Origin: an uncultured bacterium
Lineage (GTDB): Bacteria; Fidelibacterota; Marinisomatia; Marinisomatales; UBA1611
Direction of reading: 5' to 3'
Assembly (NCBI GenBank): GCA_943788175.1
Contig: CALSPG010000005.1
Location: 160,001-224,000, forward strand
DNA length: 64,000 nucleotides
In this document: positions 12,675 through 33,327 of the stretch, one piece after another
How positions within the stretch are numbered: the first letter of the stretch is position 1
Layout: the number at the start of each line of letters is the position of its first letter
Made by a program: the position numbers and the translations under genes
Notes under the pieces: model-generated
Seen by the model: the letters and a program-made list of their open reading frames with translations, nothing else
Told to the model about the DNA's origin: nothing
Databases searched by the model: none

Positions 12675-12905
12675 ATGAATAAGTTAATAACTAAATATTT
12701 TTATTTTATTTTACTTAGTGGTAGCTCGCTACTTTATTCCCAAAATTATTCCCTTAGCTTTGATGGGGATGATGATTATGTAAGCATTACAGATGATGAA
12801 TCCCTGACAAGCACTAGCGTGATGACTATCAGTGCCTGGTTCAAAAAAGTGTCCGGCTCCCGGCTGGATGAGCCTTGTTGGGAAAGGGACTTCCGATGCG
12901 AATGA
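12675..12905 (+). CDS. N-terminal fragment of giant protein 2 (signal peptide and start of LamG)
   Basis: MNKLITK...LYS|QNYSLSFDGDDDYV. An extra C in 'ctccc' (~12858-12861) shifts the frame. Confidence 0.65.
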   Translation: MNKLITKYFYFILLSGSSLLYSQNYSLSFDGDDDYVSITDDESLTSTSVMTISAWFKKVSGSRLDEPCWERDFRCE

Positions 12906-15900
12906 GGAATACGTCTTGATGCTCAAGGATGACCAGGTGTATTTTGATGTTGGGCAAGGAGGCGGTCCCTACATCCAGCAAAGCGCAACCATTGATTCTG
13001 AGACTTGGCACCACATCGCTGCCGTTCATACTCGCAGTAATGGTACTTCCATGTTGAAAGTGTATCTAAATGGCGAAGATGTTGGCGGAACAACAATAGG
13101 CGCCACAAGCACCCCCAACGATAATAGCTATCCTCTTACTATCGGTTCCAGGTTTGCCACACCCAGCGCTTTATTCAAAGGCCAAATCGACGATGTTCGC
13201 ATCTGGAGTGATGCATTAGATGGTCAGCAGATCCAAGAAATTATGGATAACAATCTGTCTGGCTACGAAGATGGCTTGGTTGGACATTGGGACTTTAATG
13301 AAGGGGAAGGTTCTTTTTTAACAGACTTAAGTGGTAATGGTAATGATGGTAGTATAAATGGAGCAGTATGGAGTGGGGATGTTTTTGATAATTTAGATGG
13401 TTCTATAACTTTTACGAAAGAAGACTATGCTGACCCAAGTTTAGCAGAGAACCAAGATCGTATTCTTGATAATATATGGATTACTAGAGGCAATGATAAG
13501 CCACTATATAATGCAGCTATAGAAGGTAGTTATAATGATCAGAATAATGATTATAGCATATCACCCGCGGGGACTGAATGGGCTAGCGGGTTAACCGTGA
13601 ACCAATCTTCTATTTTAGATTACAGCGATTTTAAAACTACTGTAGGTAGTAGTATGCAAAATTTACCAGATCAGATATTATCTCTCCACATAATAGGAAC
13701 AGATTTATACTTTGATATAGAGTTCCATTCTTGGACTAATAATCAAAATGGTGGTGGTTTTTCATACACGCGGACTCCTGCGGAAGGACCAGATTTGCCA
13801 GAGGGTTATTTTAGAAAATTAGATTATTCTGATCCTAGTTTAGCAGAGAATCAAGATCGAATTACAGACAATGTTTGGATTACCAGGGGTAGTGACAAGC
13901 CATTATATAATGCAGCATTAGAAGGGAGTTATAACGACCAGAATCGGGACAATAGTATTTCTCCAGCTGGAACTGAATGGGCAAACGGTCCGACGGTGAA
14001 TCATTCTTCTGTTTTTGATTATAAAGGTTTTAAGTCCGCGTTAGGAAATGGACTTCAAAATTTACCGGGGCAAACTCATTCTATGCATATCATCGGCACT
14101 GATATTTATTTTGATGTAGAATTTCATGCTTGGACAAGTGGCAGAAATGGTGGCGGATTTGCATATATTAAAACTCAAGTCCCGGGGCCAGCAGTACCCG
14201 AAGGTTATTTTAGAAAGTCTGACTTTGCCGATCCTTCTTTAGCCGAAAATCAAGATCGCATTACTGATGATATATGGATTGCGAGAAGTAATAGCAGTGA
14301 TACCCAGCAATCATTTTATAATGCTGCTCACGAGAGCAATTATAATAATTCTAGTTATAATGGAGGTCCTTCTCCAGAAGGGACAGAGTGGGCAAGCGGC
14401 CTTACAGAGAATCAGAATTCTATTGAGAGCTATAAGACATTTATAGGTGCTGTAGGAGATGCATACAATCTTCGTAATATTCCAGGGCAGACATATTCCA
14501 TGCATATTATTGGTACAGATCAATATTATGACGTTCAGTTTCACACGTATACTTTTGAACAGGACGGAGGTGGATTTTCGTATGTGAGAACACCAGCAAT
14601 GGGTCCAGAGCTCTTAGATGGTTATTTTAGAAAACCGAGTTATGCGAACCCAAATCTGTCATTTAACCAGGATCGCATCACCGATGAAGTTTGGATTACT
14701 CGAGGGAATGAAAGAGGACTCTACAACGTTTATAATGAAGGTGGTTATAGTGAAAATAATTCTCCTTCAGGTACTCTGTGGTCTATGGGACCTACGTCAA
14801 ATCAAGTATCAACAGATAATTACACTTCATTTCATGATGCGACAGGTGAAAATAATTACGGAGATAACCTAAGCGAATTAGTTGGTGAGATTATGTCAAT
14901 GCATATAATTGGCACTGATATTTATTATGATTTTGAAATCCATAGTTGGGCTGACGGGCATGATGGCGGAGGTGCGTTTTCATATACAAGGACACAAGCT
15001 GAAATAAACACATTTAGTTATCCTGAAAACACAGTTTATTTTGAAAAAGAAGACTATTCAGATCCCAATCTTGAAGAAAACCAAGATAGAGTTAATGATA
15101 GTTTATGGATATCGCGCGGCGATTCTGACCCAATATACAATGTATTTAATGAGAATAGTTTTATAAATGGCATTTCTCCCTCAGGGGCAAAATGGGCACC
15201 TGGGTCAACCTCTTCTCAAAACTCGTATGGTGATTACACAGATTTTATTTCTGCGCTTGATCGAGAACTTAGATTTATTCCAGGGCAAATAATGTCTTTG
15301 AAGCTTGAGGGCAAAGAAGTTTTTTACGATATTTTATTTCATAGTTGGACAAATGACAGTCAAGAAGATTGGAATAATGAAACAAATGGTGGTGGTTTTT
15401 CATATAGTAGAATGCCTGCTGAGATAAGCACTGGATGCACAGATCAATATGCTGACAATTACAGTCCTGATGCTTCGATTGATGATGGTTCATGTATTTT
15501 CTACGAGCAATCGGTTTCTTTTACAAAAACAGATTATAGTGATTATGAATTAGCTGAAAATCAAGATCAAATTGCAGAGGGAGTTTGGATTACAAGAGGT
15601 AATTCTGACCCCCTATTTAATTCATTTTATGAAGATAGTTATGAAGAAGGTCTTTCTCCTAAAGGCACTAAATGGGCTATTGGTTTAACCTCGTCTCAAA
15701 CAGTTTATGAATATCAGTCTCTTAAAGATGCACTTAGTGGTGACTTAAGTAATATTACTGATCAAACTATATCAATGCACCTTGTTGAACTTGATATTTA
15801 TTTTGATGTACAGTTTTATTCTTGGACAAATGGCAACAATGGTGGTGGTTTTTCATATACTAGAATCCCTTCTGATGTTCCTCCGGTTAATGGTTGTATG

Positions 15901-17253
15901 AATCCATATGCAGACAACTATAATCCAAACGCATATTATGATGATGGAAGCTGTATTTATTTTCAAGAGACAGTCACTTTTACGAGGGCAGATAATGTCG
16001 ATCCAAGTATGGCAGAGAATCAAGATCGAATAACAGAGAATGTTTGGATTACCAGGGGTAATGACAAGCCATTATATAATGCAGCATTAGAAGGTAGTTA
16101 TAACGATCAGAATCGAGATAATAGTATTTCTCCAGCTGGAACTGAATGGGCAAACGGTCCGACGGTGAATCATTCTTCTGTTTTTGATTATAAAGGTTTT
16201 AAGTCCGCGTTAGGAAATGGACTTCAAAATTTACCGGGGCAAACTCATTCTATGCATATTATCGGCACTGATATTTATTTTGATGTAGAATTTCATGCTT
16301 GGACAAGTGGCAGAAATGGCGGCGGGTTTTCATATACAAGAACTCCCGTTGATGGTCCAGCATTACCTGAAGGTTATTTTAGAAAGCCTGACTTTGCCGA
16401 TCCTTCTTTAGCAGAGAATCAAGATCGTATTACTGATGATATATGGATTGCGAGGAGTAATAGTAGCGATACCTATCAATCATTTTATAATGCTGCATAT
16501 GAGAGCAGTTTTAATAATTCTAATCACAATGGAGGCCCTTCACCAGAGGGGACAGAGTGGGCGAGCGGCCTTACAGAGAATCAGAATTCCATTGAGGGCT
16601 ATAAGACATTTATAGGTGCTGTAGGAGATGCATACAATCTTCGTAATATTCCAGGGCAGACATATTCCATGCATATTATTGGTACAGATCAATATTATGA
16701 CGTTCAGTTTCACACGTATACTTTTGAGCAGAACGGAGGTGGATTTTCGTATGTGAGAACACCAGCAATGGGTCCAGAACTTGTAGAGGGTTATTTTAGA
16801 AAACCGAGTTATGCGAACCCAAATCTGTCATTTAACCAGGATCGCATCACCGATGAAGTTTGGATTACTCGAGGGGAAAGACAGCCACTATATAATGCTT
16901 TTAATGAAGGTGGTTATAGTGAAAATAATTCTCCTTCAGGAACCCAGTGGTCAATGGGACCTACGTCAAATCATAATTCTTTGTCTGATTATTCTGATTT
17001 TAAGAATGCGACTGGAGGGAATCTTCAAAACATTCCTGGGCAGACGATGTCACTTAATATAACGGGGACAAATCTTTTTTATGATGTAGAGTTTTTATCT
17101 TGGAGTAGAAATGAGGGAGGTGGGTTTTCGTATAGAAGGATTTTAGTCGAGTCTGATATTCCAATTCCGGGTGGAAATAACTCACTAAGTTTTGATGGGA
17201 AGATGATTATGTCGAATTTAATAGCTCATACTTTTGAAAGTATAATAAACTGA
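12832..17253 (+). CDS. Fragment of giant protein 2: LamG plus nine ~125-aa ENQD repeats
   Basis: LamG 'WHHIAAV...YLNG...FKGQIDDVRIW', then repeated 'F.K.DY.DP.LAENQDRITD.VWITRG...SP.GT.W...GGGFSY.R'. Confidence 0.85.
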   Translation: MPGSKKCPAPGWMSLVGKGTSDANEEYVLMLKDDQVYFDVGQGGGPYIQQSATIDSETWHHIAAVHTRSNGTSMLKVYLNGEDVGGTTIGATSTPNDNSYPLTIGSRFATPSALFKGQIDDVRIWSDALDGQQIQEIMDNNLSGYEDGLVGHWDFNEGEGSFLTDLSGNGNDGSINGAVWSGDVFDNLDGSITFTKEDYADPSLAENQDRILDNIWITRGNDKPLYNAAIEGSYNDQNNDYSISPAGTEWASGLTVNQSSILDYSDFKTTVGSSMQNLPDQILSLHIIGTDLYFDIEFHSWTNNQNGGGFSYTRTPAEGPDLPEGYFRKLDYSDPSLAENQDRITDNVWITRGSDKPLYNAALEGSYNDQNRDNSISPAGTEWANGPTVNHSSVFDYKGFKSALGNGLQNLPGQTHSMHIIGTDIYFDVEFHAWTSGRNGGGFAYIKTQVPGPAVPEGYFRKSDFADPSLAENQDRITDDIWIARSNSSDTQQSFYNAAHESNYNNSSYNGGPSPEGTEWASGLTENQNSIESYKTFIGAVGDAYNLRNIPGQTYSMHIIGTDQYYDVQFHTYTFEQDGGGFSYVRTPAMGPELLDGYFRKPSYANPNLSFNQDRITDEVWITRGNERGLYNVYNEGGYSENNSPSGTLWSMGPTSNQVSTDNYTSFHDATGENNYGDNLSELVGEIMSMHIIGTDIYYDFEIHSWADGHDGGGAFSYTRTQAEINTFSYPENTVYFEKEDYSDPNLEENQDRVNDSLWISRGDSDPIYNVFNENSFINGISPSGAKWAPGSTSSQNSYGDYTDFISALDRELRFIPGQIMSLKLEGKEVFYDILFHSWTNDSQEDWNNETNGGGFSYSRMPAEISTGCTDQYADNYSPDASIDDGSCIFYEQSVSFTKTDYSDYELAENQDQIAEGVWITRGNSDPLFNSFYEDSYEEGLSPKGTKWAIGLTSSQTVYEYQSLKDALSGDLSNITDQTISMHLVELDIYFDVQFYSWTNGNNGGGFSYTRIPSDVPPVNGCMNPYADNYNPNAYYDDGSCIYFQETVTFTRADNVDPSMAENQDRITENVWITRGNDKPLYNAALEGSYNDQNRDNSISPAGTEWANGPTVNHSSVFDYKGFKSALGNGLQNLPGQTHSMHIIGTDIYFDVEFHAWTSGRNGGGFSYTRTPVDGPALPEGYFRKPDFADPSLAENQDRITDDIWIARSNSSDTYQSFYNAAYESSFNNSNHNGGPSPEGTEWASGLTENQNSIEGYKTFIGAVGDAYNLRNIPGQTYSMHIIGTDQYYDVQFHTYTFEQNGGGFSYVRTPAMGPELVEGYFRKPSYANPNLSFNQDRITDEVWITRGERQPLYNAFNEGGYSENNSPSGTQWSMGPTSNHNSLSDYSDFKNATGGNLQNIPGQTMSLNITGTNLFYDVEFLSWSRNEGGGFSYRRILVESDIPIPGGNNSLSFDGKMIMSNLIAHTFESIIN
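13843..16973 (+). repeat. ~960-bp in-frame direct duplication (13843-14804 and 16012-16973)
   Basis: Near-identical DNA at a constant offset of 2169 bp, covering repeats 2-4 versus 7-9. Confidence 0.9.
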
Positions 17254-17802
17254 GTATTACGCATACAGGCCTGGATTAAAGTTACCGTCGATGTGACGCA
17301 AACTCCTTCTTATGGTTCCAAAATAGAGATTGTGTGTTGGAATGCTGGTGATGCGTCATCAAAGTTTTGAATTTACAAGGTTATGCGAGTCTGGATGACG
17401 GCATATTTGATTGATAATGCTTTTACACTGCCCATCGAATGAATGGCACTTATGTTGCTATTAGTTTAGCAATGTAATAATGTTCATCAAAATTTACGTA
17501 AATGGTGATATTGTTTTTCACAAGATCATTTTTTCGGTGAAATAGTATCCTCAATAATCATTCTGTTCAAATGGGATACGTATCATCTGGATGCACCTAT
17601 TCTTTCCATGGAATATCAATGGTTTGAAATTTGGGTGATAATTCTCTGAGCAGGAGATGAAGAACAACATGATTGACGTTATTCATCAAAATGATTCCAG
17701 GCTAATTGGATATTGGAACTTTAGATGGTGAAGGCTCAACTTTAACAGATCTAAGTGGTAGTGCAAACATGGTAAATAAATGGTGCAACTTGGAGCGGGG
17801 AT

Positions 17803-18942
17803 GTGCCTATCCCTCCAGTTTATGGATGTACTGATTCTTACGCGTCAAATTTTAATTCAGATGCAAATGCAGATGATGGTAGCTGTGATTATCTGGAAGA
17901 TGGTAATAGTTCTTTAGCTTTTAATGGTGATGCCAATTCAGTAAACATTGATGTAAACACAATTGATGATTATACAATATCTGGCTGGTTTAATTATGAA
18001 ACAGCAGATGATGGGAATTCTATTATCTCAAGTTCTAATGATTATATTCGAATAGTTTCATCATTAGAATCTGAAAACCTTAAAGTACTTGGTTATAATT
18101 CGCCAACAGGTGCAAATCATAGAGGCCAAACTATTTTAGATTCAAATGTTTGGTACCATTTTACTGTAGTCAGGAGTGACGCACAGCTTGCCTTTTACAT
18201 TAACGGCGAATTTGATAGTTATTTTTATGAACCAGGAACAAATATAAATTGGTCAAAAATTGGTCTTCATAGCAATGGTTACCAACATGGGTTCGATGGT
18301 AAAATAGATGAAATTACCATATGGGATGAGGCTTTGAGTGAAACTGATATTCAAGATCTTATGTTTTTAGATTCGCTGCGGGATAATTATAATTCATTTA
18401 AAGCTGATTATAGATTTAATGCTAATAACGGCGACATTTTATATGATCATTCCGGAAATGGGAACCATGGCCAAATTAATGGAGCAACATGGGCTAATGG
18501 ATTTAGAATGCCTTCATCTCAAGTAACTTTTCTTGTAAACATGAGAGAGTTTGCAGAAGATGACGTGCTATCGGAAGGGGTTTATATATCTGGTGGAAAT
18601 ATTGGTTCTCTTGCGGGATCTATTGATGATCAAACAGGGTTCCAGATGTTTGATGATGATGGAGACCATGTATATGAAGTAACATTAAACCTTGATCGTA
18701 ATTCATTTTATAATTACAAATTTCGAATTGGTTTGACAGATGGGAATTGGCAAGGAAACTGGGAAGGTATACCTCAAGATTGTGGATATGGCGAATGGTT
18801 CGATCGTTCTTTGAATACTTCTAGCGCTGGCAGTCAAATAGTTGGGCCATACTGTTTCAGTAGTTGCGACAATTGTGAAGTGCCGAATATGTCTCTCAGC
18901 TTTGATGGGATGGATGATTATGTGAGCTCAAATTCCAAATAG
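17803..18942 (+). CDS. Fragment of giant protein 2: GCTD motif, LamG and CBM20-like domain
   Basis: 'GCTDSYASNFNSDANADDGSC', a LamG, and 'VTFLVNM...DDDGDHVYEV...YKFR...CFSSCDNC'. Confidence 0.75.
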   Translation: MPIPPVYGCTDSYASNFNSDANADDGSCDYLEDGNSSLAFNGDANSVNIDVNTIDDYTISGWFNYETADDGNSIISSSNDYIRIVSSLESENLKVLGYNSPTGANHRGQTILDSNVWYHFTVVRSDAQLAFYINGEFDSYFYEPGTNINWSKIGLHSNGYQHGFDGKIDEITIWDEALSETDIQDLMFLDSLRDNYNSFKADYRFNANNGDILYDHSGNGNHGQINGATWANGFRMPSSQVTFLVNMREFAEDDVLSEGVYISGGNIGSLAGSIDDQTGFQMFDDDGDHVYEVTLNLDRNSFYNYKFRIGLTDGNWQGNWEGIPQDCGYGEWFDRSLNTSSAGSQIVGPYCFSSCDNCEVPNMSLSFDGMDDYVSSNSK

Positions 18943-19216
18943 TGAACTTTATGATTTTACAAATGACTTTTCAGTAGGGGTTCATTTTAAACCTGCCTCT
19001 AATTTTAATGGTGGTTGGTTATTCTCAACAAGGTTATGATGGGCAAGGACAAATGAATCGGATATGGAGCGTATATGCCTATAATGACCGGAATGATTAT
19101 TATCGTTGAATTTGTTACTTCTGATGGATTTCACCAATTTGATGTAGATGCAAATTTTTCACGCAATAGCTGGAATTTGATCATGATGACCTATGATGGA
19201 AGTTACGTAAAGTTTT

Positions 19217-22200
19217 ATGATGAAAATTCATTGTTACATTCAGAACCTATTTCTGCTGAGGTATATAACAGTGATTATGATTTATCAATTGAGTTTCTTA
19301 CCACATGATGATTTGAGTACATATGGAGGTTTTTTTGGAGGTAATATTGATAATTTGAATCTCTGGAATAGAACCTTAATCTTAGATGAAATAATAGATA
19401 ATGACTTCAATTCATTAAGTGGTAATCAAAATGGATTAGTTGGTTTTTGGGATTTTAATGATGGTGAAGGTTCCACATTGACTGATTACAGTGGAAACGG
19501 AAATCATGGCACTATTTACGGTGCCACTTGGACTGATGATTTTCCAATACCACCACATGCAGGGCCTGAATGGTTTGTAGATGAAGATGGGTCAGATGAT
19601 AATAATGGGTCCTATGATTATCCATTTTCTACAATTCAGCATGCGATTAATTCTGCTAATGATGGAGATTCTATTTTTGTTCGTTCAGGAACGTATTATG
19701 AAAACATTAACTTTTATGGAAAAGAAGTAAAAGTTTTCGGTTTAAGCGGGCCAGAAGAAACAATCATTGATGGACAAGCTATGAACAGTGCGGTGGTTGC
19801 TTTCAGGGATTTTGATTATTCAGATGCAGGTATATATGGTTTTACAATTCAAAATGCTGAGTATGGAGTGATGGTATTAAATGGTGGTAGTCCGGAGATT
19901 AAATGGTGTATTGTAAGGGATATTACCTTAGGTGGTGATGGTGGTTTTTACTTAGCAGGAGATGGGATTGGTTCCTCACCGACAGTATCAGAATGTCTGA
20001 TTTATGGGAATGAAAGTAACTCTGGCGAAGGTGGTGGAATTAGAGTTGCGAGTAATAATGGAAGTTCTTCAGCTTTAATTATTAATTGTACAATCGTAGG
20101 CAATAGTCCAGAAGGTATTAGAGTGCATGGTTCTAACACAGTGGTTGATGTTGTAAATACTATCATTTACGATAATCCAACAAGCATCACAAATTTGGGA
20201 ACTATAAACATAACGAATAGTAATGTTCAAGGCGGTTTTGCTGGTGACGGTAATTTCGATGATGACCCTCAATTCTGCAATCCAGTGGCTGGTGATTATT
20301 TGCTCTCTGAGAGCTCTTCTAGTTTATTCTATGTAGAAGACAGCCTATCTGTTGGGTTTTATAATAATCCTGGATGTGAATTTGCATATACAAATTATGC
20401 TCTAAGCCTAAATGGGGATGATGACCAAATTGAACTTGACCCATCGTATTTAGATGGACTTAGTGAATTTACGTTTCAAGCTATGTTTTTTGCGAATCAA
20501 GAACAATCAGGAATTTCAAACATCATTCAGCACGATGGACCAAGCAGTGATTTCTATTTAAGATATGAAGGGAATGGTTTTAAAGCATTTCAAAAAAACA
20601 GTGATTCAGAATATGGGTTCATAAATATAGATGCTCCTAGTTCTAACGTTTGGCACCAAATTACTTTTACCTATGATGGTTCTACTTCTAGACTCTATTT
20701 AGATGGAAATGAGCAAGGTTCATTTGATTTAACTGGGACGTATGTTTCTAATGAAACAATCTACTTAGGCAATTGGGAGCAAAGGGAAGGTTTCAATGGA
20801 GCTATTGATGAGGTATCCTTATTTGATTATGCATTAACCCAAGAAGAAGTTTTAGATTATTCCAACAGAGCTTTGAGTGGTTTAGAGAATGGTGTTCTAG
20901 CTCATTTTAATTTTGATGAAGGCGACGGGAATACACTTTTAGATGTGACTGGTAATGGTAATGATGGGATTATAATAGGTGGATCATGGGTTGATGGAGC
21001 ACCACTTAATGCTCCAGAACCTCCTGAACCTGAAATAACAGCAATTAATGTTGAGATTGATAATAATAATGTAAGTTTTAGTTTCGAGGCCGATACTGCT
21101 GGGTTAGGATTTTTTGATGTGCAATGGGTTTTAGGCTCTGATACCGTAATGTCGTACCAAGGGACTAGTGCCCAGGATTTAAGGCCAGGATTGCATTATG
21201 TTCGCGCGCGGCTTATAGATCAAGGTGGAAATTTAAGAGGGGATGAAGTATTACAGAGTTTTTACATTTTAAATGGTTATGAACAATATTATTATACTGG
21301 ATTTGAAGATACTGTAGACACTGGTCTGCCAGCCGGATGGGGTTCATATTCAAATGGACAAGGGTGGTATGTATCAGACAACCCATTTTTCGAAGTATGG
21401 ACAGCAGAGCCCGGTGTTGGCAATGTTGCAATCTCAAACGATGATGCTGCAGATAACGATGGAGAAAATGATTTCAATAATGGCTCTCAAGACTTTCTTT
21501 ATTTACCGCCATTAGACTTTACTTCATTTGGTGGAGCTGTTGCTTTAGAGTTTGGAAGCTTCTTTACTGGTCATTGGAATCAAACAGCGCATGTTACTTA
21601 CACTACCGATGGTGGTTCTTCGTGGCAAACGCTTGCTGATATTGAACCAAGTTGGAAATGGGAAAGACAATATTTTGATTTAAGTTTTCTTCAGGGTTAT
21701 GAAAATGTTTCAATATCATTTCATAGTAATGATAATAATGATTGGGGTTCTGGTTTAATAATCGATGATGTATCTATTATCGAAAACTATACATTATCGA
21801 CATCATTCATCACTGGATATGTTTATAGTAGTAATGGAGATAACCCCTTAATAGGTGCTTCAATAATAGCGGTTGAAGAAAATAATTATTTTGATCATCA
21901 AACTATAAGCGATAGCACCGGATATTATTCTCTAGAACTTATTTCTGGAACTAACTATTATTTAAATACCAGCCTTTCAGACTATCAGGATAATGTTCAA
22001 TACGTTTCAGTATCTGATGATAGTCTTTATTTAAATATTTATTTAGATGATTTTCAAGAAGTTCAGGATGCAATAGTTGAAGGGAATGTAATTAACTGGT
22101 ACACAAACGAGAGCGTACCAAATGCTTCAGTTCTTTTTGTGTACTCTGATGACGAAATGCAGACCATAGAATTATTAACAGATGAGTCTGGGTATTTTAT

Positions 22201-24766: not shown

Positions 24767-26185
24767 ATGAAGAAAAACTTAAATAAAATATTAATATTAT
24801 TTTTTGCAACTCTAACTATAGGGTTTTCTCAAAATAACTATTCTCTCAGCTTTGATGGGGTTGATGATTACGTCAATATCTCTTCTGGTGATGATTTTAA
24901 TGTATCTGATGATCAAGAATTAACTATATCAGCATATATAAAAACAAATGAAAATGGATATTTGTTTAATGCGGAATTTAGCTTTGGGTATTATTTTTAT
25001 ATTTCACAATCATCTGAATTAGCACTATGGTATAACGGCACAGGTAATGGTTGTGGCGCAAATACTGATATAAGAGATGGGGATTGGCATCATGTGGTTG
25101 CTTCATACGACGGCAATTCAATTAAAATTTATATTGATGGTCAATTAGATAACAATTGTGAAAATATGGGATCATTAGAATCTCGCGATGGTTCTATTGA
25201 TATAACAATAGGTAATAGACCTGGCTCTACTCATTTTAATGGAGGAATTGATGAGGTCTCAATCTGGAATAAAGCATTAACTCAAGAGGAAGTCGAAAAT
25301 ACTATCCAGGTCGAACTTAATGGCGATGAAGAAGGTCTAATTGGATATTGGAATTTCAATGATGGAGAGGGTACCACATTAACTGACTTAAGTGGCAATG
25401 GGAATAATGGTACAATCAGCGGTGCTACTTGGAGTAATGATGTGCCAATTTTGCCAACTCCACCAGTAATTGGCGGGAACAATTCATTTAGTTTTGATGG
25501 TGATGATGATAGAGTTGAATTACCTAATCAAATAACAGAAGGATTAACCAGTGTCACTTTCATGGCATGGTTCAATACTACAGATCATTCTGGTTATTCA
25601 AATATTGTCCAAGATGATGGGCCTAGCGGAGCTTTATACATACGGTATAATCCTGATGGTAGTTTTAAATATGTTTTTAAAGCATCGCAAGGTTGGAGAT
25701 CAATTTCAATTAGTCCTCCTTCTTACGGTGTGTGGCATCATGTTGCTATGAGCTGGGATGGGAACAATATAAAGGCTTATCTAGATGGGGAAGAAGTTGG
25801 TAGTTCTAGTGGGTCAGGTACAATGAGTGGTGGAGGGCCGATATATATTGGTAATTGGCAACAGCAAGAGGGCTTTTCAGGGAAAATTGACGATGTCCAA
25901 TATTGGAATATTGCTCTAAGTGAATCTGAAATTCAAACGCACATGAATACAGAGCCAACAGGAAATGAAGAAGGTTTAATTGGATATTGGAATTTCAATG
26001 AGAGTGAGGGATCTGAATTAATAGATTTAAGTGGCAATGGTTATAATGGTACGGTCTATGGTGCTACTTGGTCAGGAGATGGTGCGCCGGTTGAAGCTCC
26101 AGTTTTAGGTTGTACAGATCTATATGCTGAAAATTATGATTCTGAGGCGAATTCAGATGATGGCAGTTGTTCTGGACTACCCTGA
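24767..26185 (+). CDS. Giant protein 3 fragment: signal peptide and 2 LamG domains
   Basis: GFS|QNNYSLSFDG, then two 'WHHV...G.ID.V..WN...GYWNFN' units. Confidence 0.8.
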   Translation: MKKNLNKILILFFATLTIGFSQNNYSLSFDGVDDYVNISSGDDFNVSDDQELTISAYIKTNENGYLFNAEFSFGYYFYISQSSELALWYNGTGNGCGANTDIRDGDWHHVVASYDGNSIKIYIDGQLDNNCENMGSLESRDGSIDITIGNRPGSTHFNGGIDEVSIWNKALTQEEVENTIQVELNGDEEGLIGYWNFNDGEGTTLTDLSGNGNNGTISGATWSNDVPILPTPPVIGGNNSFSFDGDDDRVELPNQITEGLTSVTFMAWFNTTDHSGYSNIVQDDGPSGALYIRYNPDGSFKYVFKASQGWRSISISPPSYGVWHHVAMSWDGNNIKAYLDGEEVGSSSGSGTMSGGGPIYIGNWQQQEGFSGKIDDVQYWNIALSESEIQTHMNTEPTGNEEGLIGYWNFNESEGSELIDLSGNGYNGTVYGATWSGDGAPVEAPVLGCTDLYAENYDSEANSDDGSCSGLP

Positions 26186-26961
26186 TAATGGAAACTATGC
26201 ATTAAGTTTTACTGAATCTGAAGATTATATTGAGCTGGCGGAGGATGGATTTGGCTCAGGTATTCCATTACTCTCACTGTTCTTTTTAAATCTTAATCAG
26301 CTCGATGACCTGATCAATAATGCAGCTGTCATTCACAGAGTGGGGATAGAAGTACTTCTGATTTTCACATCTACTATTATCAAATGGGATTAATCTCTTT
26401 TGGTGGGCACATGTCTGAACTAGCTGTGCAAATCAATCGGCAATACCCTTCGCAATTGGCTACAGGAATAATGGCTGGAATAATTCAGCTATTACATGGC
26501 ATGGTTTCAGCAATGGCGATCCTTTATAGGCGGTCGATATTGCGGAAGTCATTTATCCTCCGTACAATGCCACTGATGGTACAATGTCGATCGCGTACGA
26601 TTTACGATCTGGTGAGTACGGGTTCTAAGGAGATCTATCTGAAATGGATGAACTCCAGAGTATGGAATCAAGCTCTGGTTACTGCAGAATTACCCCTCTT
26701 TATCCAAATCAATAATTTAAATGATTCTGCATATGGTGGGCTACTGGAAAATGGATTCTGGTGAAGATGAAATCTTGTATGACCATTCTGGGAATCAAAA
26801 CCACGGATCAATTGTAGGAGCAACCTGGGTAGAAGTTACTTCTGGCTGCACAGGATCCCTATGCTGAAAATTATGATTCTGAGGCTAATTCAGATGACGG
26901 CAGTTGCTCAGGTTATCCAGATAATGGCCAATTTTCTCTGAGTTTTGATGGGATAGATGAT

Positions 26962-28245
26962 TTGGTTCAAATTAATGAGCCTTTGTTTAACCCAAATGAA
27001 TTTTCAATTGTATTTTATATTAAAACTAGTGTGAATGGGAAACAGCTCTTTTGGAGCGGCAGGACAATCACTGCATCACAACATACAGAGAACTCTTTTA
27101 ATTTTGATTTAAATGAAATTGATAATTTTTATACAGGTTTTTTCAATAATAACGATGGTCAATCTTTATGGTCGTATCAAAATATATATGATAACGATTA
27201 TCATCAAATTGTAGTGACATTTGAAAATGGTTTAGCAAAACATTACATTGATGGCAATCTAACAGCCTCTACTGATCTTAATTTTAATTCAATTAATGTT
27301 ACTGATGGCAATTTCTCTACTATAGGCAGGGGTATTGGTCAACCAGGTATTTGGGGAGCAAGGTTTTATGAAGGTAATATAGATGAAATTATAATATTTA
27401 ATAAATCACTAACTGAATCAGATCTTCCTCAATTGCTATCTGGAATTGAATATTCTGATGATATATCAGGACATTATAAATTTAATGCTGGTAATGGTGA
27501 CATTCTATTCGATCACTCTGGAAATCAAAATCACGGTTCAATAAATGGAGCAACTTGGAGTGAAGATGTTTATGTCCCTCCAGCCCCACCGGTCATTGGA
27601 GGTAATAATTCACTCAGTTTCGATGGGGTAGATGACTATGTAGAGATAGATGATGCTGATATTCTTGATGGTATGAATAATTTAACATTACAAACATGGA
27701 TAAAATTTAATTCTTACAATGATTATTCGGGGGAAGAAAAAGCATACAACCTTATTTCTAAACAGCAATATGGGGCAAATGCAAATGCTGGAATATCATA
27801 TGCTTTATACACTCATCATGATGCAAATCAATTAACATTTCTTATTAGCACAAATCAAAATCAACAAAAAGGTGCAAATCTTTTTGATTACGAATCATTT
27901 ATTAATCTTGATCAATGGCATCATATTGCTGGCGTTTATGATGGTTCTTTTGTTTACCTTTATATTGATGGAAATCTTGTTGCGCAAAGCGATGTGATAA
28001 ATGGTGAAATCGTAGGCACTGGCTATCCCTTAAGGATTGCCTCTAATTTGGGGGTAGATAGAATCGCATTTTTTGATGGTTCTTTTGATAATACATCTAT
28101 TTTATCTACCGCACTAAGTAGTGATGAAATTCAAAATCATATGAATATCTCATTTTCTGGTGAAGAACAAAATTTAGTTGGTTACTGGAACTTTAATGAA
28201 GGTGATGGCACAACTTTTTCGGATTTAAGTAGTAATGGAAAATAA
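26962..28245 (+). CDS. Giant protein 3 fragment: 2 LamG domains
   Basis: Two LamG units joined by PPAPPVIGGNNSLSFDG. Confidence 0.75.
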   Translation: MVQINEPLFNPNEFSIVFYIKTSVNGKQLFWSGRTITASQHTENSFNFDLNEIDNFYTGFFNNNDGQSLWSYQNIYDNDYHQIVVTFENGLAKHYIDGNLTASTDLNFNSINVTDGNFSTIGRGIGQPGIWGARFYEGNIDEIIIFNKSLTESDLPQLLSGIEYSDDISGHYKFNAGNGDILFDHSGNQNHGSINGATWSEDVYVPPAPPVIGGNNSLSFDGVDDYVEIDDADILDGMNNLTLQTWIKFNSYNDYSGEEKAYNLISKQQYGANANAGISYALYTHHDANQLTFLISTNQNQQKGANLFDYESFINLDQWHHIAGVYDGSFVYLYIDGNLVAQSDVINGEIVGTGYPLRIASNLGVDRIAFFDGSFDNTSILSTALSSDEIQNHMNISFSGEEQNLVGYWNFNEGDGTTFSDLSSNGK

Positions 28246-31054
28246 TGGTACAATTTATGGTGCTACTTGGTCAGGAGATGGTGCGCCTGTTGAAGCTCCA
28301 GTTTCTGGTTGTACAGATATATATGCTGAAAATTATGATTCTGAGGCGAATATAGATGATGGCAATTGTACTGGATATCCTAATAATGGAGATTACTCTT
28401 TATACTTTGATAGAGATTTAGTAAACGTAGGTGAAATTGGAGACTACAGTTCACAGGTTACGGTAATGGGTTGGGTCAGAACTACAGATGATCAATCTTA
28501 TCATGCTATCATGTCAGGGGATTGTGGAAATATTATGCTTACAATGCATGGGGGTAAAATTCTTTTTGGTTCTCAATGCAGCTCGCCAATTCAGCATGAT
28601 ACATATGGTACCACCGATATAAACAATGGCGAGTGGTATCACGTTGCGGCAACTTATGATGAATATGGCGGAGAAAATAATCTTAAGGTTTATGTTAATG
28701 GTAATTTGGAAGGGCAGTCAACAAAATCTGGGCAATTCTCTGGAGCTACTGGAAACTTCGCAATTGGTAGTAGATCCGGTGGTGGTGAATACATAAATGG
28801 AAATCTGGACATGGTTCGTATCTGGAAGACTGCTTTGACTCAAGATCAAATTAAAGAAAATATGTTGTCAGTTAATGCATTAGTAGATGATGGTCTTCTT
28901 GCGGATTGGCAGGTTAGTGCCGGTGAGGGTAACATTTTATATGATCACTCTGGTAATGGTAATCATGGCTCAATAGACGGAGCAAGTTATTTTGGTGAAT
29001 TTCCTTCATTTGGCTGCATAGATCCTTATGCAGAAAATTATGATCCTGAAGCTGATGTAGATGATGGCGATTGTTCTGGATATCCTGATAATGGAGAATA
29101 TGCTCTTAGCTTTGGAGCAAGTCAAGATCATGTCGATCTAGGTGGTAATATGGATTCAGATGAGCAATTTTCAATTGCTACGTGGGTTTATATAGATGAA
29201 AACATTATTCCTCTTAATGGACAAAGGACATTTATAAATAAAGTTAACAGCTCAAACGGGGACAAGAGTATCTTCCTAGGTAGCTATCAGAGTAAGATTG
29301 GTTTTACCGTTCTTACAGGTGAACAATCAAATATTATGTATGGTAGTAACAACCAAAATGGTTCTCTGGGATTTACTGAAACTCCTCTGGTTCCAGGTTG
29401 GCAGCATATTGGTGCTGTATTTACTGGAGATAGTATGTTGGTATACATTAATGGTGAGCTTGATGCGAATGTCGTTGTATTTCAAAATCCTGGTTCAGTA
29501 AATGATTATGATAATTCTGTTTGGCATATGGCTGATGTATTAGGTGGTTCTGGTAATGTAGGTGGAAAGATTAGTTCAATGAGTCTTTGGAGTATATCTC
29601 TTCAGCAAACTGATATTCAAAATTTAATGTCTGAGTCTCCTGATCCACTTTCTGCTGGGTTAATGGGTATGTGGAAGTTTTCTGAAGGAGAAGGGAGTTT
29701 GTTACATGATCATTCTGGGAATGGGAATCACGGTACAATTACGGGTGCAACATGGAGCGATGATGTTCCATATGTAGGTCCTGAATGGTTTGTAAGTATC
29801 AGTGGTGATGATTTAAATATTGGTTCTCAAGATGAGCCTTTCGCAACTATCCAGCATGGAATAAATGCAGCGCATAATGGTCATATCGTTCTTGTCTCAC
29901 CTGGTACATATACTGAAAACATAAATTATAATGGTAGAAATATTCTGGTTATTTCAGAAATGGGGCCGAGTGAAACAATTATTGATGGAGGTCAAAATGG
30001 ATCTGTTGTTACTTTCAATAGTGGTGAAACAGATGCAGCAACATTAGACGGTTTTACTATTACAAATGGACTCACAGAAAATGGTAATGGAGGCGGAATT
30101 TTTATTGATAATTCAAGTCCAAATATTTTCAATGTAATTGTTGAAAATAATCATGCAAATAGTGGCGGGGGTATTGATCTCAAAGGGGAAACTCAAACGG
30201 TTATTTCAAATAGTATCGTACGCAATAATTCCGCAGAGTGGGGAGCAGGAATTTATTGCCACTCAAATAGTCCAACGATTGAAAATGTAGTGGTTAGTAG
30301 TAATCATGCTACTGTGAATGCTGGAGGTGTTTATGCTCGCGAATATGCTTCCCCTACTATAATAAATTGTACAATCGTTAATAATTCAACGGATGGACAA
30401 GGTGGGGGAATTTTAACGTGGTTTAATTCTACCGTTGATGTGAAAAATTCTATTATCAGAGATAATTATCCTAATGAGTTAGGACATGTCTCTGGTGGTT
30501 CAGTTACACTAAATTATTCAAATATAAGCGGAAACCATGAAGGCTTTTCAGGGTCAAATAATATTAATGCTGATCCTATGTTTTGTAACCAAAGTAATAA
30601 TGATTTTCGAATTACTCAGAATTCACCATGTTTTGGTGCTGGTGAGTCAGGAATAGATATTGGCGCTATTTTCGACGGTGATTACTGTCAAGAACCATTT
30701 GTTAATCATTCTCTCAGCTTTGATGGGGTGGATGACAATGTTGAACTTGCGAATAGACCAATTACTGGAAGTGTAGATGCCTTTACAATTCTTACCTCTT
30801 TTAAAACAAATAGGTTGAATTCCGATCAACAAATTATTTATGAGCAGTGTGGTAATTATAAAGATTATTCATTATCACTAAATAGTAATTATCACGATTC
30901 TGAAAACCCTAACTCTGATTACACATTAGGATTTTATTTAGCCGTATCTCAAGGAGGGCAGGGGCATGCATACGCTCCTTGGAATCAATTAGTGAGAATA
31001 CTTGGCATAAAGCAGCGATTGTATGGGATGGAGCATATGTTCATATTTATGTAG
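28235..31054 (+). CDS. Giant protein 3 fragment: 2 LamG, GCTD motifs and DUF1565/beta-helix
   Basis: LamG motifs, 'PFATIQHGI...PGTYTENINY' and GGGI beta-helix repeats. Confidence 0.8.
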   Translation: MENNGTIYGATWSGDGAPVEAPVSGCTDIYAENYDSEANIDDGNCTGYPNNGDYSLYFDRDLVNVGEIGDYSSQVTVMGWVRTTDDQSYHAIMSGDCGNIMLTMHGGKILFGSQCSSPIQHDTYGTTDINNGEWYHVAATYDEYGGENNLKVYVNGNLEGQSTKSGQFSGATGNFAIGSRSGGGEYINGNLDMVRIWKTALTQDQIKENMLSVNALVDDGLLADWQVSAGEGNILYDHSGNGNHGSIDGASYFGEFPSFGCIDPYAENYDPEADVDDGDCSGYPDNGEYALSFGASQDHVDLGGNMDSDEQFSIATWVYIDENIIPLNGQRTFINKVNSSNGDKSIFLGSYQSKIGFTVLTGEQSNIMYGSNNQNGSLGFTETPLVPGWQHIGAVFTGDSMLVYINGELDANVVVFQNPGSVNDYDNSVWHMADVLGGSGNVGGKISSMSLWSISLQQTDIQNLMSESPDPLSAGLMGMWKFSEGEGSLLHDHSGNGNHGTITGATWSDDVPYVGPEWFVSISGDDLNIGSQDEPFATIQHGINAAHNGHIVLVSPGTYTENINYNGRNILVISEMGPSETIIDGGQNGSVVTFNSGETDAATLDGFTITNGLTENGNGGGIFIDNSSPNIFNVIVENNHANSGGGIDLKGETQTVISNSIVRNNSAEWGAGIYCHSNSPTIENVVVSSNHATVNAGGVYAREYASPTIINCTIVNNSTDGQGGGILTWFNSTVDVKNSIIRDNYPNELGHVSGGSVTLNYSNISGNHEGFSGSNNINADPMFCNQSNNDFRITQNSPCFGAGESGIDIGAIFDGDYCQEPFVNHSLSFDGVDDNVELANRPITGSVDAFTILTSFKTNRLNSDQQIIYEQCGNYKDYSLSLNSNYHDSENPNSDYTLGFYLAVSQGGQGHAYAPWNQLVRILGIKQRLYGMEHMFIFM

Positions 31055-33327
31055 ATAGTGTTTTAGTCTCCACGATAAACTATAACATCGGAGGAAGTTT
31101 TGATATGGATGCTGCTCCTGAGGATGGTCATATAGGATTAGGATGTGTTGATAATCTACCTTTTGATGGTAATTTAGATGAAATTTCATTTTGGGATAGA
31201 GCTTTAACAAATGAAGAATTACTACTTTATATGTCCGAACCACCATCAGGGAATGAAGAAAACTTATCTTCTTACTATAATTTTGATGAAGGCGAGGGAA
31301 CTACCTTAACCGATTTAAGTGGTAATGGAAACAATGGAATTATTAATGGAGCTTTGTGGGATAATTATGGCGCACCAATTGGTCCGACAGGCGGCGAAAA
31401 CAATGAGCCAAATATAAATGGAAGACTTTCTGGAATCATTTCAGCATCGTCTGATAACGCTTTATTAGAAGGTGCTCATATTATAGCTATTTCAGAAGAC
31501 AATAGTTTTAGTGCTGAAGTATATAGTGATACAAATGGTACATATAGTTTAGATCTTGTCGGCTCTTTAAATTATTTTGTTAATATTTCTTATGAAGGGT
31601 TAGTAGATCACAACGAATATCTTTATGTCGCTCCTTTCGAAGAGACGAATCTCAATGCTTCCTTAAATGTACTTGAAGACGCTATTGTCGAAGGTACGGT
31701 TACAGACTGGTATACGAACACACCGTTAGCAAGTGCATCGGTACTCCTTGCTTACACAGATGAAGAAATGGAAACAATTGAATCTATGACAGATGAGAAT
31801 GGTTATTTCATGGTTCAAGTACCAGGTGAAAAAGATTATGATTTATTTGTGTATGCGGATGGATACTGGGTAGAGCATGATGCCTTTTTTCTAAGTTCTG
31901 GTTCGCAGGAAGAAATAAATGTTGGTATTGCTGAGATGTCTTCTGCCTCCAGGTTGTACGGAACAATTAAGGATATTGAAACGAATGAGTTAATTCCGTA
32001 TGCAGAAATTCAACTTAACTGTGATCAAGCAAGCGATTGGGATCACACAGGCGCACTTGGTACCTATCGTTTATTTAATTATTACTCTGGTGATTGTGAT
32101 GATGGGGTATTGATTGTAAGTGCTAATGGTTATGAAACAAGTGTTCAATCTGCTAGTGATATAGCGTTTGAAGTAGGGTCTTCCCATGAAATGGATATTA
32201 CTTTAATGCAAGGTGATGATCCTGATCCTGGTATGATTTCCGGGACAGTATTTTCAAATATTGATCAAAGTACAATAGGCTCCGCTACTATCAACGCTTA
32301 CAATGTTAACACTACACAGTTGTTTTCAATTGAAACATCAGAAGAGGGTTCTTATCAATTATTTTTACCTGAATCAGAATACTATATATCTATTACTGCT
32401 AATAATCATGAAGAACATTTTGACACATTATCAGTTGTTTCTGGGCAATCATTTACTCGCGATTTTTATTTAGACGAAGTCTATCTCAATACAGTTTCTG
32501 GAATTGTTGCTGGCCCGAGCGGAAATGGTCTGTTTGATATAGAAGTATTTGTATCTCCGGAAGGGGAAAGATATACGATTGCAAGCACCTTCACAAATGA
32601 ATCTGGTGAATATACGTTACAAGTTCCAAACGGTCGTTATGATTTTGGAGCTGGTAATACAAACTATTATATGACTTTTGAATATAGTGTTGAGCTTTCT
32701 GGTAGCGATCAAAACATTGATTTTACCCTTACTCCAGTTGCTCAATTTGATGGGGGATTCGCAGGTTTAGTCCATTTAAATGAAGGAGATAACTCAACGG
32801 TTTGGTTAAATATTTGGAATTCAGATTTAACTTATCAAGCGTACATATCTTCCGATGAAAATGGAGCGTACACGCTTGCATTAATAAATGGGACATATAG
32901 TTTATATGCTTGGGTACCTGGTTCAAATTATCAATCTGTCTATGTGCCGAATGCATTTACGATTGAAGATAATGTCATTAATTATGATATTTATTTTGTA
33001 GCGCCAGACGCTCCGGAACCGCCTACGGTTGTATTTTTAGAAGACGTTCCAAATGATCAAGGTGGGCAATTAGAATTAGCTTGGACGCCTGGTGATCCTC
33101 GCGAGTATGAAATCTTTCCTCAATATAGTATTTGGAGAATGGACGAAGAATGGAACTTGATTTCAACGGTTCCATATAGAGGTTCTGATGTGTATAGTAT
33201 GGTTGTTCCAACCTTAGGTGATTCAACTCAAGAAGGTATTTTTGAAAGTACATTTATGGTGACAGCGCACACGATTAATCAAAATATCTTTTTTGATTCA
33301 GACTCCAGTCACAAGTTACTCTATTGA
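30979..33327 (+). CDS. Giant protein 3 fragment: end of LamG, carboxypeptidase-regulatory-like repeats and DVPNDQG domain
   Basis: Colinear and similar to the 21790-23740 region of protein 2. Confidence 0.8.
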   Translation: MESISENTWHKAAIVWDGAYVHIYVDSVLVSTINYNIGGSFDMDAAPEDGHIGLGCVDNLPFDGNLDEISFWDRALTNEELLLYMSEPPSGNEENLSSYYNFDEGEGTTLTDLSGNGNNGIINGALWDNYGAPIGPTGGENNEPNINGRLSGIISASSDNALLEGAHIIAISEDNSFSAEVYSDTNGTYSLDLVGSLNYFVNISYEGLVDHNEYLYVAPFEETNLNASLNVLEDAIVEGTVTDWYTNTPLASASVLLAYTDEEMETIESMTDENGYFMVQVPGEKDYDLFVYADGYWVEHDAFFLSSGSQEEINVGIAEMSSASRLYGTIKDIETNELIPYAEIQLNCDQASDWDHTGALGTYRLFNYYSGDCDDGVLIVSANGYETSVQSASDIAFEVGSSHEMDITLMQGDDPDPGMISGTVFSNIDQSTIGSATINAYNVNTTQLFSIETSEEGSYQLFLPESEYYISITANNHEEHFDTLSVVSGQSFTRDFYLDEVYLNTVSGIVAGPSGNGLFDIEVFVSPEGERYTIASTFTNESGEYTLQVPNGRYDFGAGNTNYYMTFEYSVELSGSDQNIDFTLTPVAQFDGGFAGLVHLNEGDNSTVWLNIWNSDLTYQAYISSDENGAYTLALINGTYSLYAWVPGSNYQSVYVPNAFTIEDNVINYDIYFVAPDAPEPPTVVFLEDVPNDQGGQLELAWTPGDPREYEIFPQYSIWRMDEEWNLISTVPYRGSDVYSMVVPTLGDSTQEGIFESTFMVTAHTINQNIFFDSDSSHKLLY

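Follow-up and report, generated by a model that had tools for sequence, protein, structure and literature searches.

How does a gene for a surface protein come to hold a row of domains that are alike at their ends and scarcely related in between? The question is raised by a 64-kb stretch of DNA (the window; positions 160,001 to 224,000 of the 583,249-bp contig CALSPG010000005.1) from an uncultured, Marinimicrobia-like marine bacterium (FCB group) of the Marinisomatales, in which two tandem paralogues on the plus strand, gene 2 and gene 3, occupy 12.6-33.9 kb and carry arrays of LamG modules. A preliminary description, made from the letters of the window, had proposed that these modules behave as cassettes exchanged at conserved DNA linkers. 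Having followed this proposal up, we consider it probable, taking the reading as a whole, that LamG cores have been shuffled by recombination within the conserved frames of these tandem surface paralogues. The observations that carry this reading are the architecture of the two genes, their conserved borders and divergent cores, the mosaic in which the same cores are arranged in relatives, the places where identity switches and, for one core (u12), an age that is younger at synonymous sites.

Two tandem genes with conserved borders and divergent cores

Genes 2 and 3 are built to a common plan, in which an array of LamG modules is followed by a right-handed beta-helix (DUF1565/Beta_helix), one further LamG module, five or six CarboxypepD_reg repeats and a FlgD_ig/Por_Secre_tail end, and their C-terminal halves share 72-73% DNA identity. 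The main parts of the locus are listed first; here and below, u and L with two digits or fewer denote modules and linkers, P with a number a relative protein, and L001 a single-cell genome.

12675..24322, plus strand: gene 2, in the frame pieces 12615-12905, 12826-17253, 17776-18942, 19057-19308 and 19211-24322; in order, putative signal peptide, u01, about 3.7 kb of ~400-bp repeats, u02, u03, an unnamed domain, u04, beta-helix, u05, CarboxypepD_reg repeats and a FlgD_ig/type IX secretion system (T9SS) sorting domain
24327..24746, plus strand: small open reading frame (ORF) between genes 2 and 3, 139 aa, with a signal-peptide-like N-terminus and without family
24767..33904, plus strand: gene 3, in the pieces 24755-26185, 26109-26393, 26321-26764, 26721-26867, 26833-28245, 28229-31054, 30919-33327 and 33263-33904; in order, putative signal peptide, u06 to u12, beta-helix, u13, CarboxypepD_reg repeats and a T9SS sorting domain
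29780..30690, plus strand: beta-helix of gene 3 (DUF1565/Beta_helix), 95% identical in P0018, 44% in L001 and of low identity in P0022

The C-terminal end of gene 2 matches TIGR04183 with 36.9 bits (cut-off 23) and PF18962 with 29.1 (cut-off 27), and that of gene 3 matches PF18962 with 29.0 (cut-off 27) over residues 120-200 of its 203-aa final piece. The N-terminus of either gene is hydrophobic and, read by eye, signal-peptide-like, with the first module directly after it (MNKLITKYFYFILLSGSSLLYSQ in gene 2 and MKKNLNKILILFFATLTIGFSQ in gene 3); the start of gene 2 is further marked by P0001, residues 1-39 of which are 90% identical to 12675-12791. We infer that both proteins are exported and anchored via the type IX sorting domain and would be displayed at the surface, and that their LamG arrays are probably glycan- or ligand-binding. 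Between u01 and u02, gene 2 holds its ~400-bp repeats (13408-17094), which match no Pfam family; two of the copies, 13831-14804 and 16000-16973, align over 975 bp with 93% identity and differ at 68 sites, of which 44 are third codon positions, without adenine bias.

A hidden Markov model (HMM) derived from the window recognised 11 LamG modules in 12740-31360, and a unit HMM run on short frame pieces added two degenerate ones (u02 and u08), which gives the 13 modules, five in gene 2 and eight in gene 3, of the preliminary description; the 5' borders of gene 3 are spaced by 642-787 bp, slightly above the 600-650 bp that it gave as unit length. Eight ORF pieces reach 47.5-192 bits against PF13385 (Laminin_G_3; gathering cut-off 27.6). 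In each domain a conserved first strand (..YSLSFDGxDDYV) leads into a core of some 150 hypervariable residues, and a conserved C-terminal hairpin (GLxGYWNFNEGEGxxLxDxSGNGNxGxIxGATW) closes it; either a short Pro-rich spacer or a small Cys-bridged mini-motif comes next. The modules are as follows.

12744..13251, plus strand: u01, LamG core directly after the putative signal peptide, with one +1 frame change near 12851-12865
17167..17817, plus strand: u02, degenerate LamG module with the frame path 1>3>1>2>3>1 and stops in all frames
17902..18363, plus strand: u03, LamG core; a different core at this slot in P0031
18886..19399, plus strand: u04, LamG core, intact in P0031 (94-95% identity), against which the window has four insertions
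20393..20866, plus strand: u05, LamG core after the gene 2 beta-helix; 100% identity in P0031
24836..25309, plus strand: u06, LamG core, the first module of gene 3; 100% identity in P0080
25475..25948, plus strand: u07, LamG core found at 92-100% identity in four different contexts
26178..26834, plus strand: u08, degenerate LamG module with five successive +1 changes from ~26172 to ~26850 (path 2>3>1>2>3>1)
26926..27438, plus strand: u09, LamG core at 88-94% identity in P0020, P0021 and P0023, where its neighbours differ
27601..28146, plus strand: u10, LamG core at 97% identity in P0147, with a different core ahead of it
28388..28864, plus strand: u11, LamG core at 89-90% identity in P0020 and P0021 and 62% in L001
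29093..29632, plus strand: u12, LamG core shared with L001 at 91% in amino acids and 83% in nucleotides, dS 0.53
30704..31236, plus strand: u13, LamG core after the gene 3 beta-helix, with one -1 change between ~30895 and 31000; another core in P0018 and in L001

The unlikeness of the cores and the likeness of their borders are both borne out when the units are aligned. When the ten readable units were aligned by codon (45 pairs), the cores were 21% identical in amino acids and 40% in nucleotides, the 5' borders 45% and 56%, and the linkers 52% and 61%. The 5' border TCTCTCAGCTTTGATGGG, which encodes S-L-S-F-D-G, recurs exactly at 18892, 24842 and 30710 and with two or three mismatches at 12750, 17182, 26935 and 27610, that is, seven matches for 0.03 expected, a number reached in none of 100 shuffles. 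The 3' border GGATATTGGAAYTT, encoding G-Y-W-N-F, is exact at 17708, 25343 and 25982, and with up to two mismatches its total rises to seven, which exceeds chance only weakly (2.6 expected, and seven attained in 2 of 100 shuffles). As for the 140-bp linker, 26057-26196 and 28256-28394 are identical at 127 of 139 positions (107 of 114 in the first 114 nt), and a partial copy at 26842-26908 is identical at 58 of 65. These recurrences had all been proposed in the preliminary description, and they are present where it placed them. The LamG units have 14 exact repeats of at least 16 nt in common, and every one of them falls within a linker or a 5' border; the longest measure 32, 32, 26, 26, 25 and 22 nt. 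Four linkers of gene 3 recur in what follows.

25310..25474, plus strand: L6, the C-terminal hairpin of u06 (GLIGYWNFNDGEGTTLTDLSGNGNNGTISGATW) and a short Pro-rich spacer, with a P0018 block end at 25343
25949..26176, plus strand: L7, the u07 hairpin and a Cys mini-motif spacer (GCTDLYAENYDSEANSDDGSC); the identity with P0018 stops at 26176, and the window has a +1 insertion near 26172
28147..28387, plus strand: L10, the u10 hairpin and a Cys mini-motif spacer, the twin of L7, with a +1 insertion at ~28240 (GGAAAATAATGG) and the start of the P0020/P0021 block at 28298-28307
28865..29092, plus strand: L11, the u11 hairpin and a Cys mini-motif spacer, site of a one-module insertion or deletion (indel) relative to L001, in which the high-identity blocks of u12 also have their left ends (28994, 29012)

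L7 and L10 are 91-94% identical and have in common two exact 32-nt blocks. Their mini-motif, of about 25 residues with two Cys (GCTDxYAENYDxxAxxDDGxC), is also found elsewhere, the spacers concerned being 26096-26170, 26842-26913, 28295-28369, 28990-29065 and 17815-17890; it has no Pfam match and a predicted local confidence (pLDDT) below 50 in the structural model, and its DNA is kept across species (26099-26191 against L001 10037-10128, 85%).

On one point the preliminary description has to be revised: what it took for a 3' linker between domains appears, from the positions of the modules and from pLDDT, to be the conserved C-terminal hairpin of each LamG domain. We assign the hairpin to the core that precedes it because u01 and u06 follow a putative signal peptide without GYWNF..GATW ahead of them, and u05 and u13 still carry the hairpin, and because the model gives a pLDDT of 78-89 to the copy after the core, against 49-78 for the copy before it. 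The AlphaFold2 model of L6-u07-L7 (pLDDT 75.7) is all-beta, with a jelly-roll core at 81-93 per ten-residue block and one loop block at 74-75. Among the best Foldseek matches are Bacteroides ovatus 4dqa, which is annotated 'putative carbohydrate binding protein', the LamG domain of PAPP-A and pentraxins (E 5e-12 to 1e-9), in alignments of 216-244 columns, exceeding the 160-residue core.

The likeness of the borders might reflect the protein that they encode, and their synonymous codons bear on this. The fraction of identical residues encoded by the same codon is 0.436 in the cores (expected 0.44-0.46; 0 of 45 pairs significant), 0.518 in the 5' border (expected 0.46-0.49; 0 of 45 pairs with p<0.05) and 0.517 in the linkers (expected 0.42-0.45; 5 of 45 pairs with p<0.05). 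The earlier claim that synonymous sites are shared beyond what protein constraint requires is thus not sustained as a general statement, and it stands for particular sequences: L7 and L10 have 40 of 49 codons in common against an expectation of 23 (p=9e-7), L6 and L7 have 21 of 27 (p=5e-4), and the 18-mer for SLSFDG uses the rare codons CTC, AGC and GGG (6%, 10% and 16% of their families), the probability that at least three of seven are identical under codon usage being about 6e-4 in a test chosen post hoc. The excess of shared codons in some borders suggests, therefore, that those borders have a more recent common ancestry than the cores that they flank.

Part of this pattern would also follow from an old tandem duplication of domains, in which the borders were kept alike by fold and codon bias and the linkers by short-tract gene conversion, and the cores were never exchanged. 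Codon sharing in the cores is at the expectation from codon bias, as it is, pair by pair, in the 5' border, and the likeness of L7 to L10 and of L6 to L7 is expected from conversion alone. The border motifs are, moreover, family-wide: multi-LamG proteins labelled Microcystis, Paceibacterota and Alphaproteobacteria are 29-42% identical to a two-module query. Where such a duplication and the shuffling of cores differ is in the arrangement of modules among relatives.

The same cores in other arrangements

Apart from L001, the close relatives are proteins predicted from metagenome assemblies. A scan of 181 relative proteins yielded 462 LamG cores, 21 of them at least 80% identical to a core of the window; a query with the C-terminal piece, meant for longer relatives, returned matches of at most 48% identity and missed the L001 protein. 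Of the core-core junctions beside a core of at least 80% identity, 20 of 22 differ from the window and 2 match, so that the order and content of the modules, as the preliminary description would have it, are not the same in the relatives compared.

The mosaic is seen where a slot has changed within an otherwise matching backbone. P0031 is 97-100% identical to 18403-21115, u04 and u05 included, and holds another core in the slot of u03 (12-30% identity), the switch falling at 18403, on the border equivalent to GYWNF. P0018 is 93-95% identical over 25343-26176 (u07 and L7), 29708-30736 and 31282-31527, has an unrelated core in the slot of u13 and carries two modules where the window carries five, and in P0147 a core 97% identical to u10 is preceded by a different one. 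Order changes as well: P0020 and P0021 read u11 (89-90%) and then u09 (92-94%), against u09-u10-u11 in the window, and P0023 reads u09-x-u12. P0027 and P0103 have u01 at 87-92% behind other modules, and u07 stands directly after the signal peptide in P0081 and before a u03-like core in P0082 and P0085; the u01, u03-like and u07 cores thus occur in arrangements that mix parts of gene 2 and gene 3.

The ends of the matching blocks were placed by change-point estimates on alignment diagonals, with one read from a 24-residue paint, to a total of 15. Twelve lie in linkers or spacers (18403, 25343, 26176, 26884, 27460, 28298, 28994, 29012, 29641, 29708, 29761 and 31282), three of these (25343, 18403 and 31282) exactly on the 3' motif or its equivalent; the remaining three are found on SLSFDGxDD, at 6-35 nt from the start of a module (12750, 27636 and 30736). 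None falls in a core interior, which makes up 66% of the length of the gene 3 array. The block ends are partly common to related proteins and so are not independent, and at least ten sites are distinct. Different cores at the same slot, with breakpoints in the linkers, had been named beforehand as the test of the cassette proposal, and this is what the slots in P0031, P0018 and P0147 and the positions of the 15 ends display.

A second comparison comes from a scan of genome contigs, which did not hit the genome of the window itself and returned two loci, one of them an unrelated Dysgonomonas LamG protein (L002, 32% identity) and the other, the closest relative retrieved, in L001, a single-cell genome labelled uncultured Candidatus Marinimicrobia. 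The L001 locus is syntenic, with gene 2, the small ORF, gene 3 and the downstream gene in place; the small ORF (6942-7364 there; 139-140 aa) has 55% amino acid identity and a ratio of nonsynonymous to synonymous divergence (dN/dS) of 0.22. There, the orthologue of gene 3 is one uninterrupted ORF of 3504 aa; gene 3 of the window has about 3046 codons. The stalks, that is, the C-terminal halves of genes 2 and 3, are 70-75% identical to L001 in protein and 72-75% in DNA. In this one genome the flanks are thus at 72-75% nucleotide identity while most LamG cores are at 43% or less, that is, the same position with different content. Of the ten readable cores of the window, counterparts in L001 exist for u12 (91% in amino acids) and u11 (62%), and the remaining ones are at most 43% identical to any L001 core, like random paralogues. 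L001 has one extra module between the counterparts of u11 and u12, and 28899-28983 of the window aligns to both linkers that flank it, which reads as the footprint of an unequal exchange. Its gene 3 also holds, at protein residues 2094-2725, the ~400-bp repeats that the window has in gene 2.

Between the window and L001, no backbone segment is as well conserved as u12, and the beta-helix adjacent to this module is only 44% identical. Over 29093-29632 (11465-12004 in L001) it is 91% identical in amino acids, the nucleotide identity being 83% over 835 bp. In its 180 codons, synonymous divergence (dS) is 0.53, the proportion of synonymous differences (pS) 0.38 and dN/dS 0.08. In the five backbone segments dS is 1.45-2.8 and pS 0.64-0.73: the gene 3 stalk has a dS of 1.77 (dN/dS ~0.09), the sorting domain 1.46 (~0.10), the gene 2 stalk 1.79 (~0.11), the small ORF 1.45 and the downstream gene 2.77. 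A low dS is not what tighter purifying selection would by itself produce; the value is most simply read as a sharing of u12 between the two lineages after their split, and the comparison supports a pool of modules that would be wider than one lineage.

Taken with the metagenomic relatives, these values make an old duplication without exchange of cores very improbable, and we disfavour it. Cores of 80-100% identity have other neighbours at 20 of 22 junctions, the order u11-then-u09 breaks collinearity, slots are replaced inside backbones that are 95-100% identical, and u12 has a dS of 0.53 against at least 1.45 in the backbone.

Another explanation is that longer ancestral arrays lost modules differentially, through deletions by unequal crossing-over between linkers and with no import from a pool. 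It finds support in the one-module indel relative to L001, which has its ends in linkers, in the two modules of P0018 against the five of the window, and in the different lengths of the arrays (3504 aa in L001 and about 3046 codons in the window). Deletion alone, however, cannot produce the inversion that puts u11 before u09; it does not explain that the window, P0018 and L001 have cores unrelated to one another in the single slot between beta-helix and stalk, that u12 is synonymously much younger than its flanks, or that u01, u03-like and u07 cores lie in mixed gene 2 and gene 3 arrangements. As a full account of the locus we regard differential loss as quite improbable, and the shuffling of cores remains the reading that we prefer.

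Broken reading frames

As assembled, the two genes are not open under genetic code table 11, gene 2 falling into five pieces and gene 3 into at least eight. About 18 frame changes can be followed along them (12850-33303), 16 of which are +1, along a path in which some of the short defining pieces score weakly. They are distributed over u01 (1), u02 (5), u04 (4), ~26172-26850 (5), 28240 (1), u13 (1, ~30895-31000) and 33303 (1), with dense stretches at 17167-17817, 18927-19300 and 26172-26850, and u02, u04 and u08 are the most affected; u02 has no relative above 25% identity among the relatives compared. An alternative genetic code was ruled out, as about 23 kb is open under table 11 and the breaks are frame changes, with no single recurring stop.

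Could genes 2 and 3 then be decaying pseudogenes, their borders leftovers and their variability the result of relaxed selection? The number of frame changes, the stops in all frames of u02 and the lack of a full-length product under table 11 are what this would predict. The breaks, however, cluster in a few modules and leave stretches of 3.7 kb and 4.9 kb open, and 16 of the ~18 are +1, those checked being insertions. Gene decay in bacteria is deletion-biased. Selection is also apparent in a dN/dS against L001 of 0.08-0.12 in the stalk, u11 and u12, the L001 orthologue is intact, and a near-identical assembly breaks at other sites. Decay is, on these grounds, extremely unlikely.

Nine breaks were checked at the nucleotide level by comparison with intact relatives or sister linkers, and at each of them the window carries an insertion: one extra base against P0027 in u01, +4, +1, +1 and +1 against P0031 in u04, +1 against L001 at 33303, and +1 against the sister linkers near 26172, near 26850 and at 28240. 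P0031, P0080 and P0147, each listed with a longest contig of 91,852 bp, probably come from one contig, and they are 95-100% identical to the window but interrupted elsewhere: P0080 terminates within u07, a module that is open in the window, the indel of P0147 at the same SNGNNG site is another one, and P0031 has a compensated out-of-frame stretch. Because the other long ORFs of the window (~23 kb) are unbroken, gene 3 of L001 is intact and the near-identical assembly breaks elsewhere, we think that the ~18 breaks are probably sequencing or assembly errors in strain-variable, thinly covered segments rather than signs of decay. Such genes are the places where assemblies break and gather errors, and caution is due when they look like pseudogenes.

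Errors of this kind raise the question of whether the shuffling itself could be an artefact, strains or paralogues having been joined across linkers in the assemblies of the relatives and perhaps of the window too. Most relatives come from short metagenomic contigs (1.2-4.3 kb), exact repeats in the linkers reach 32 nt, and the many indel errors in these genes, in the window and in the near-identical assembly alike, indicate a region that is hard to assemble. For individual short contigs, assembly chimeras are a real caveat. As a general explanation, however, an artefact is improbable. L001 is a single-cell genome with an intact ORF of 3504 aa and still differs by a module indel, by non-orthologous cores and by repeats of the gene 2 type; the x-u11-u09 rearrangement is present in two clusters, P0020 and P0021, which then diverge; and those linkers of the window that an assembler would have to mistake for one another share no more than 73-82% identity, the longest exact runs being 32 nt. 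Runs of 32 nt are shorter than usual assembly k-mers and reads.

Proposed exchange of cores, known systems and neighbouring genes

Several considerations weigh against a shuffling of cores and should be set beside the evidence for it. For the 5' border, the broad 18-codon test gave 0 significant pairs out of 45, and the positive test on the 18-mer was post hoc. The low dS of u12 concerns one module in one pair of genomes. The metagenomic relatives are seen as proteins, and breakpoints in them are placed at protein level; any single adjacency among them could be an artefact of assemblers mis-joining strains across repeats, and the relatives could be further paralogues elsewhere in their genomes rather than alleles of genes 2 and 3. 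The collection of genomes compared has one genome per species, and some of the slot differences could stem from differential deletion in a longer ancestral array rather than from import. The assignment of the hairpin to the preceding core draws on pLDDT and on the positions of the first and last modules. Finally, neither gene 2 nor gene 3 can yield a full-length protein as assembled.

If cores are nonetheless exchanged, as we propose, the conserved strands, hairpins and spacers would be the sole DNA alike enough for two modules to pair, with exact runs of 22-32 nt. Such runs are about the minimum for RecA-dependent exchange. An exchange within the borders would delete, duplicate, reorder or replace whole cores, and each product would keep a complete structural frame. 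Recombination of this kind could move modules between the gene 2 and gene 3 paralogues and import cores from other strains or even other species. Structural constraint would be one cause of the lasting likeness of the borders and repeated gene conversion the other; conversion would account for the L7/L10 and L6/L7 pairs and the SLSFDG codons and would in turn sustain exchange. The outcome would be a population with a conserved stalk and anchor and with differing sets and orders of LamG cores. In this proposal the joints would be made by ordinary (RecA-type) homologous recombination, with no dedicated enzyme, and surface diversification would be the purpose; provided that the arrays are displayed and bind glycans, the benefit may lie in varied binding specificity, in escape from phages and grazers, or in both.

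The preliminary description had noted the lack of a reverse transcriptase or recombinase in the window, and no reverse transcriptase, recombinase or transposase family is found in the 49 ORF translations. A diversity-generating retroelement was ruled out by this lack of a reverse transcriptase and by the near-identical repeat pair without adenine bias. Within the window there are no silent LamG cassettes, the only other LamG module lying in an intact 835-aa ORF (55340-57847). One may go further and imagine an evolved, enzyme-free cassette system, in which the first strand and the last hairpin double as structural frame and as portable recombination sites and are held alike even at synonymous positions, as the rare codons common to the SLSFDG copies would suggest, such that any core of the species' pool, or of another species (as with u12), fits any slot of either paralogue and still folds. 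The lectin-like surface array would then amount to a framework-and-variable-region design, selected for evolvability, in a phylum that is among the most abundant uncultured ones of the ocean. We put this forward tentatively and, on balance, doubt it.

Features of this arrangement have parallels in several known systems. In the polymorphic toxin loci CDI and Rhs, a short conserved DNA motif likewise borders an exchangeable and divergent module; those loci have one terminal toxin module with an immunity gene, whereas here the domains are internal and of binding type, with many slots, two borders per cassette and no toxin or immunity genes. The receptor-binding proteins and tail fibres of phages similarly exchange divergent binding modules at conserved junctions across lineages, but they are virion proteins, and the present genes encode a putative cellular, T9SS-anchored protein with an array of many cassettes. 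Antigenic variation by cassettes is familiar from Neisseria pilE/pilS and Borrelia vlsE, and the likeness consists in variable segments flanked by conserved DNA that guides recombination and in a mosaic surface protein. Cassette antigenic variation, however, uses silent, promoterless donors in the same genome and unidirectional conversion within a clone, whereas the variation here is between genomes and over evolutionary time. Mycoplasma MgPa/RepMP belongs to the same group of systems, on which PMC3472980 may be consulted.

Periscope proteins (PMC8201768) have repeat arrays altered by recombination between repeats, and the ~400-bp repeats of gene 2 (copies 93% identical) seem to be of their type; periscope repeats are near-identical and vary in number, whereas the LamG cores are about 21% identical to one another and vary in identity and order. 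A further parallel is Alteromonas macleodii, in which genes for giant surface proteins or flexible genomic islands are replaced by homologous recombination (PMC3698932; PMC4033161). There, as here, very large surface proteins of free-living marine bacteria are concerned, identical versions occur in divergent backgrounds, and recombination in conserved flanks and evasion of phages have been proposed. The unit of exchange there is a whole gene or its repeat region; here it would be a single LamG core, many to a gene, with the joints in conserved strands inside the gene. No description of Marinimicrobia LamG arrays was found in the literature searched, which also yielded nothing pertinent on type IX secretion in this group or on LamG domains shuffled at linkers. 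Mosaic surface proteins are already known, and what would be new is the use of domain cores as cassettes in a multi-slot, lectin-like array, joined within the frame of the domain itself.

The Marinimicrobia (SAR406) are an abundant, uncultured group whose dealings with particles, polysaccharides and phages are largely obscure. If cores are indeed interchanged, a protein with a stalk, an anchor and interchangeable LamG cores would be a concrete source of surface diversity at the level of strains, and its module types could be counted in long-read metagenomes, giving a handle on microdiversity. As a natural example of recombination joints inside a protein domain, with conserved strands framing a swappable core, the locus would also be relevant to domain engineering.

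Elsewhere in the window, the minus strand of 55340-57847 encodes the 835-aa protein with one LamG module mentioned above, which lies downstream of a pilin-like ORF (57786-58361) with a 62-nt overlap and is possibly a pilus protein tipped with LamG or else a gene split by a frame change; the DNA of its hairpin resembles L6 (25343-25439 against 56053-55957, 71%). That pilin-like ORF belongs to a second repeat-rich locus for surface structures, in which the minus strand of 57786-63998 holds twelve tandem pilin-like genes with the N-terminal methylation motif, beside secretin, PilO-like and PilM-like genes, and which has DNA repeats of its own (for example 61516-62117 against 61884-62506, 71%). 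Gene 3 is followed by a 968-aa protein without family (33975-36881), syntenic and 82% identical in L001, and by a DUF5723 protein (37271-38392), both of them possible partners of T9SS cargo. The surroundings further encode another T9SS-type protein, a Ni superoxide dismutase, a TonB-dependent receptor, an FG-GAP/T9SS-like protein and a CHASE2 cyclase.

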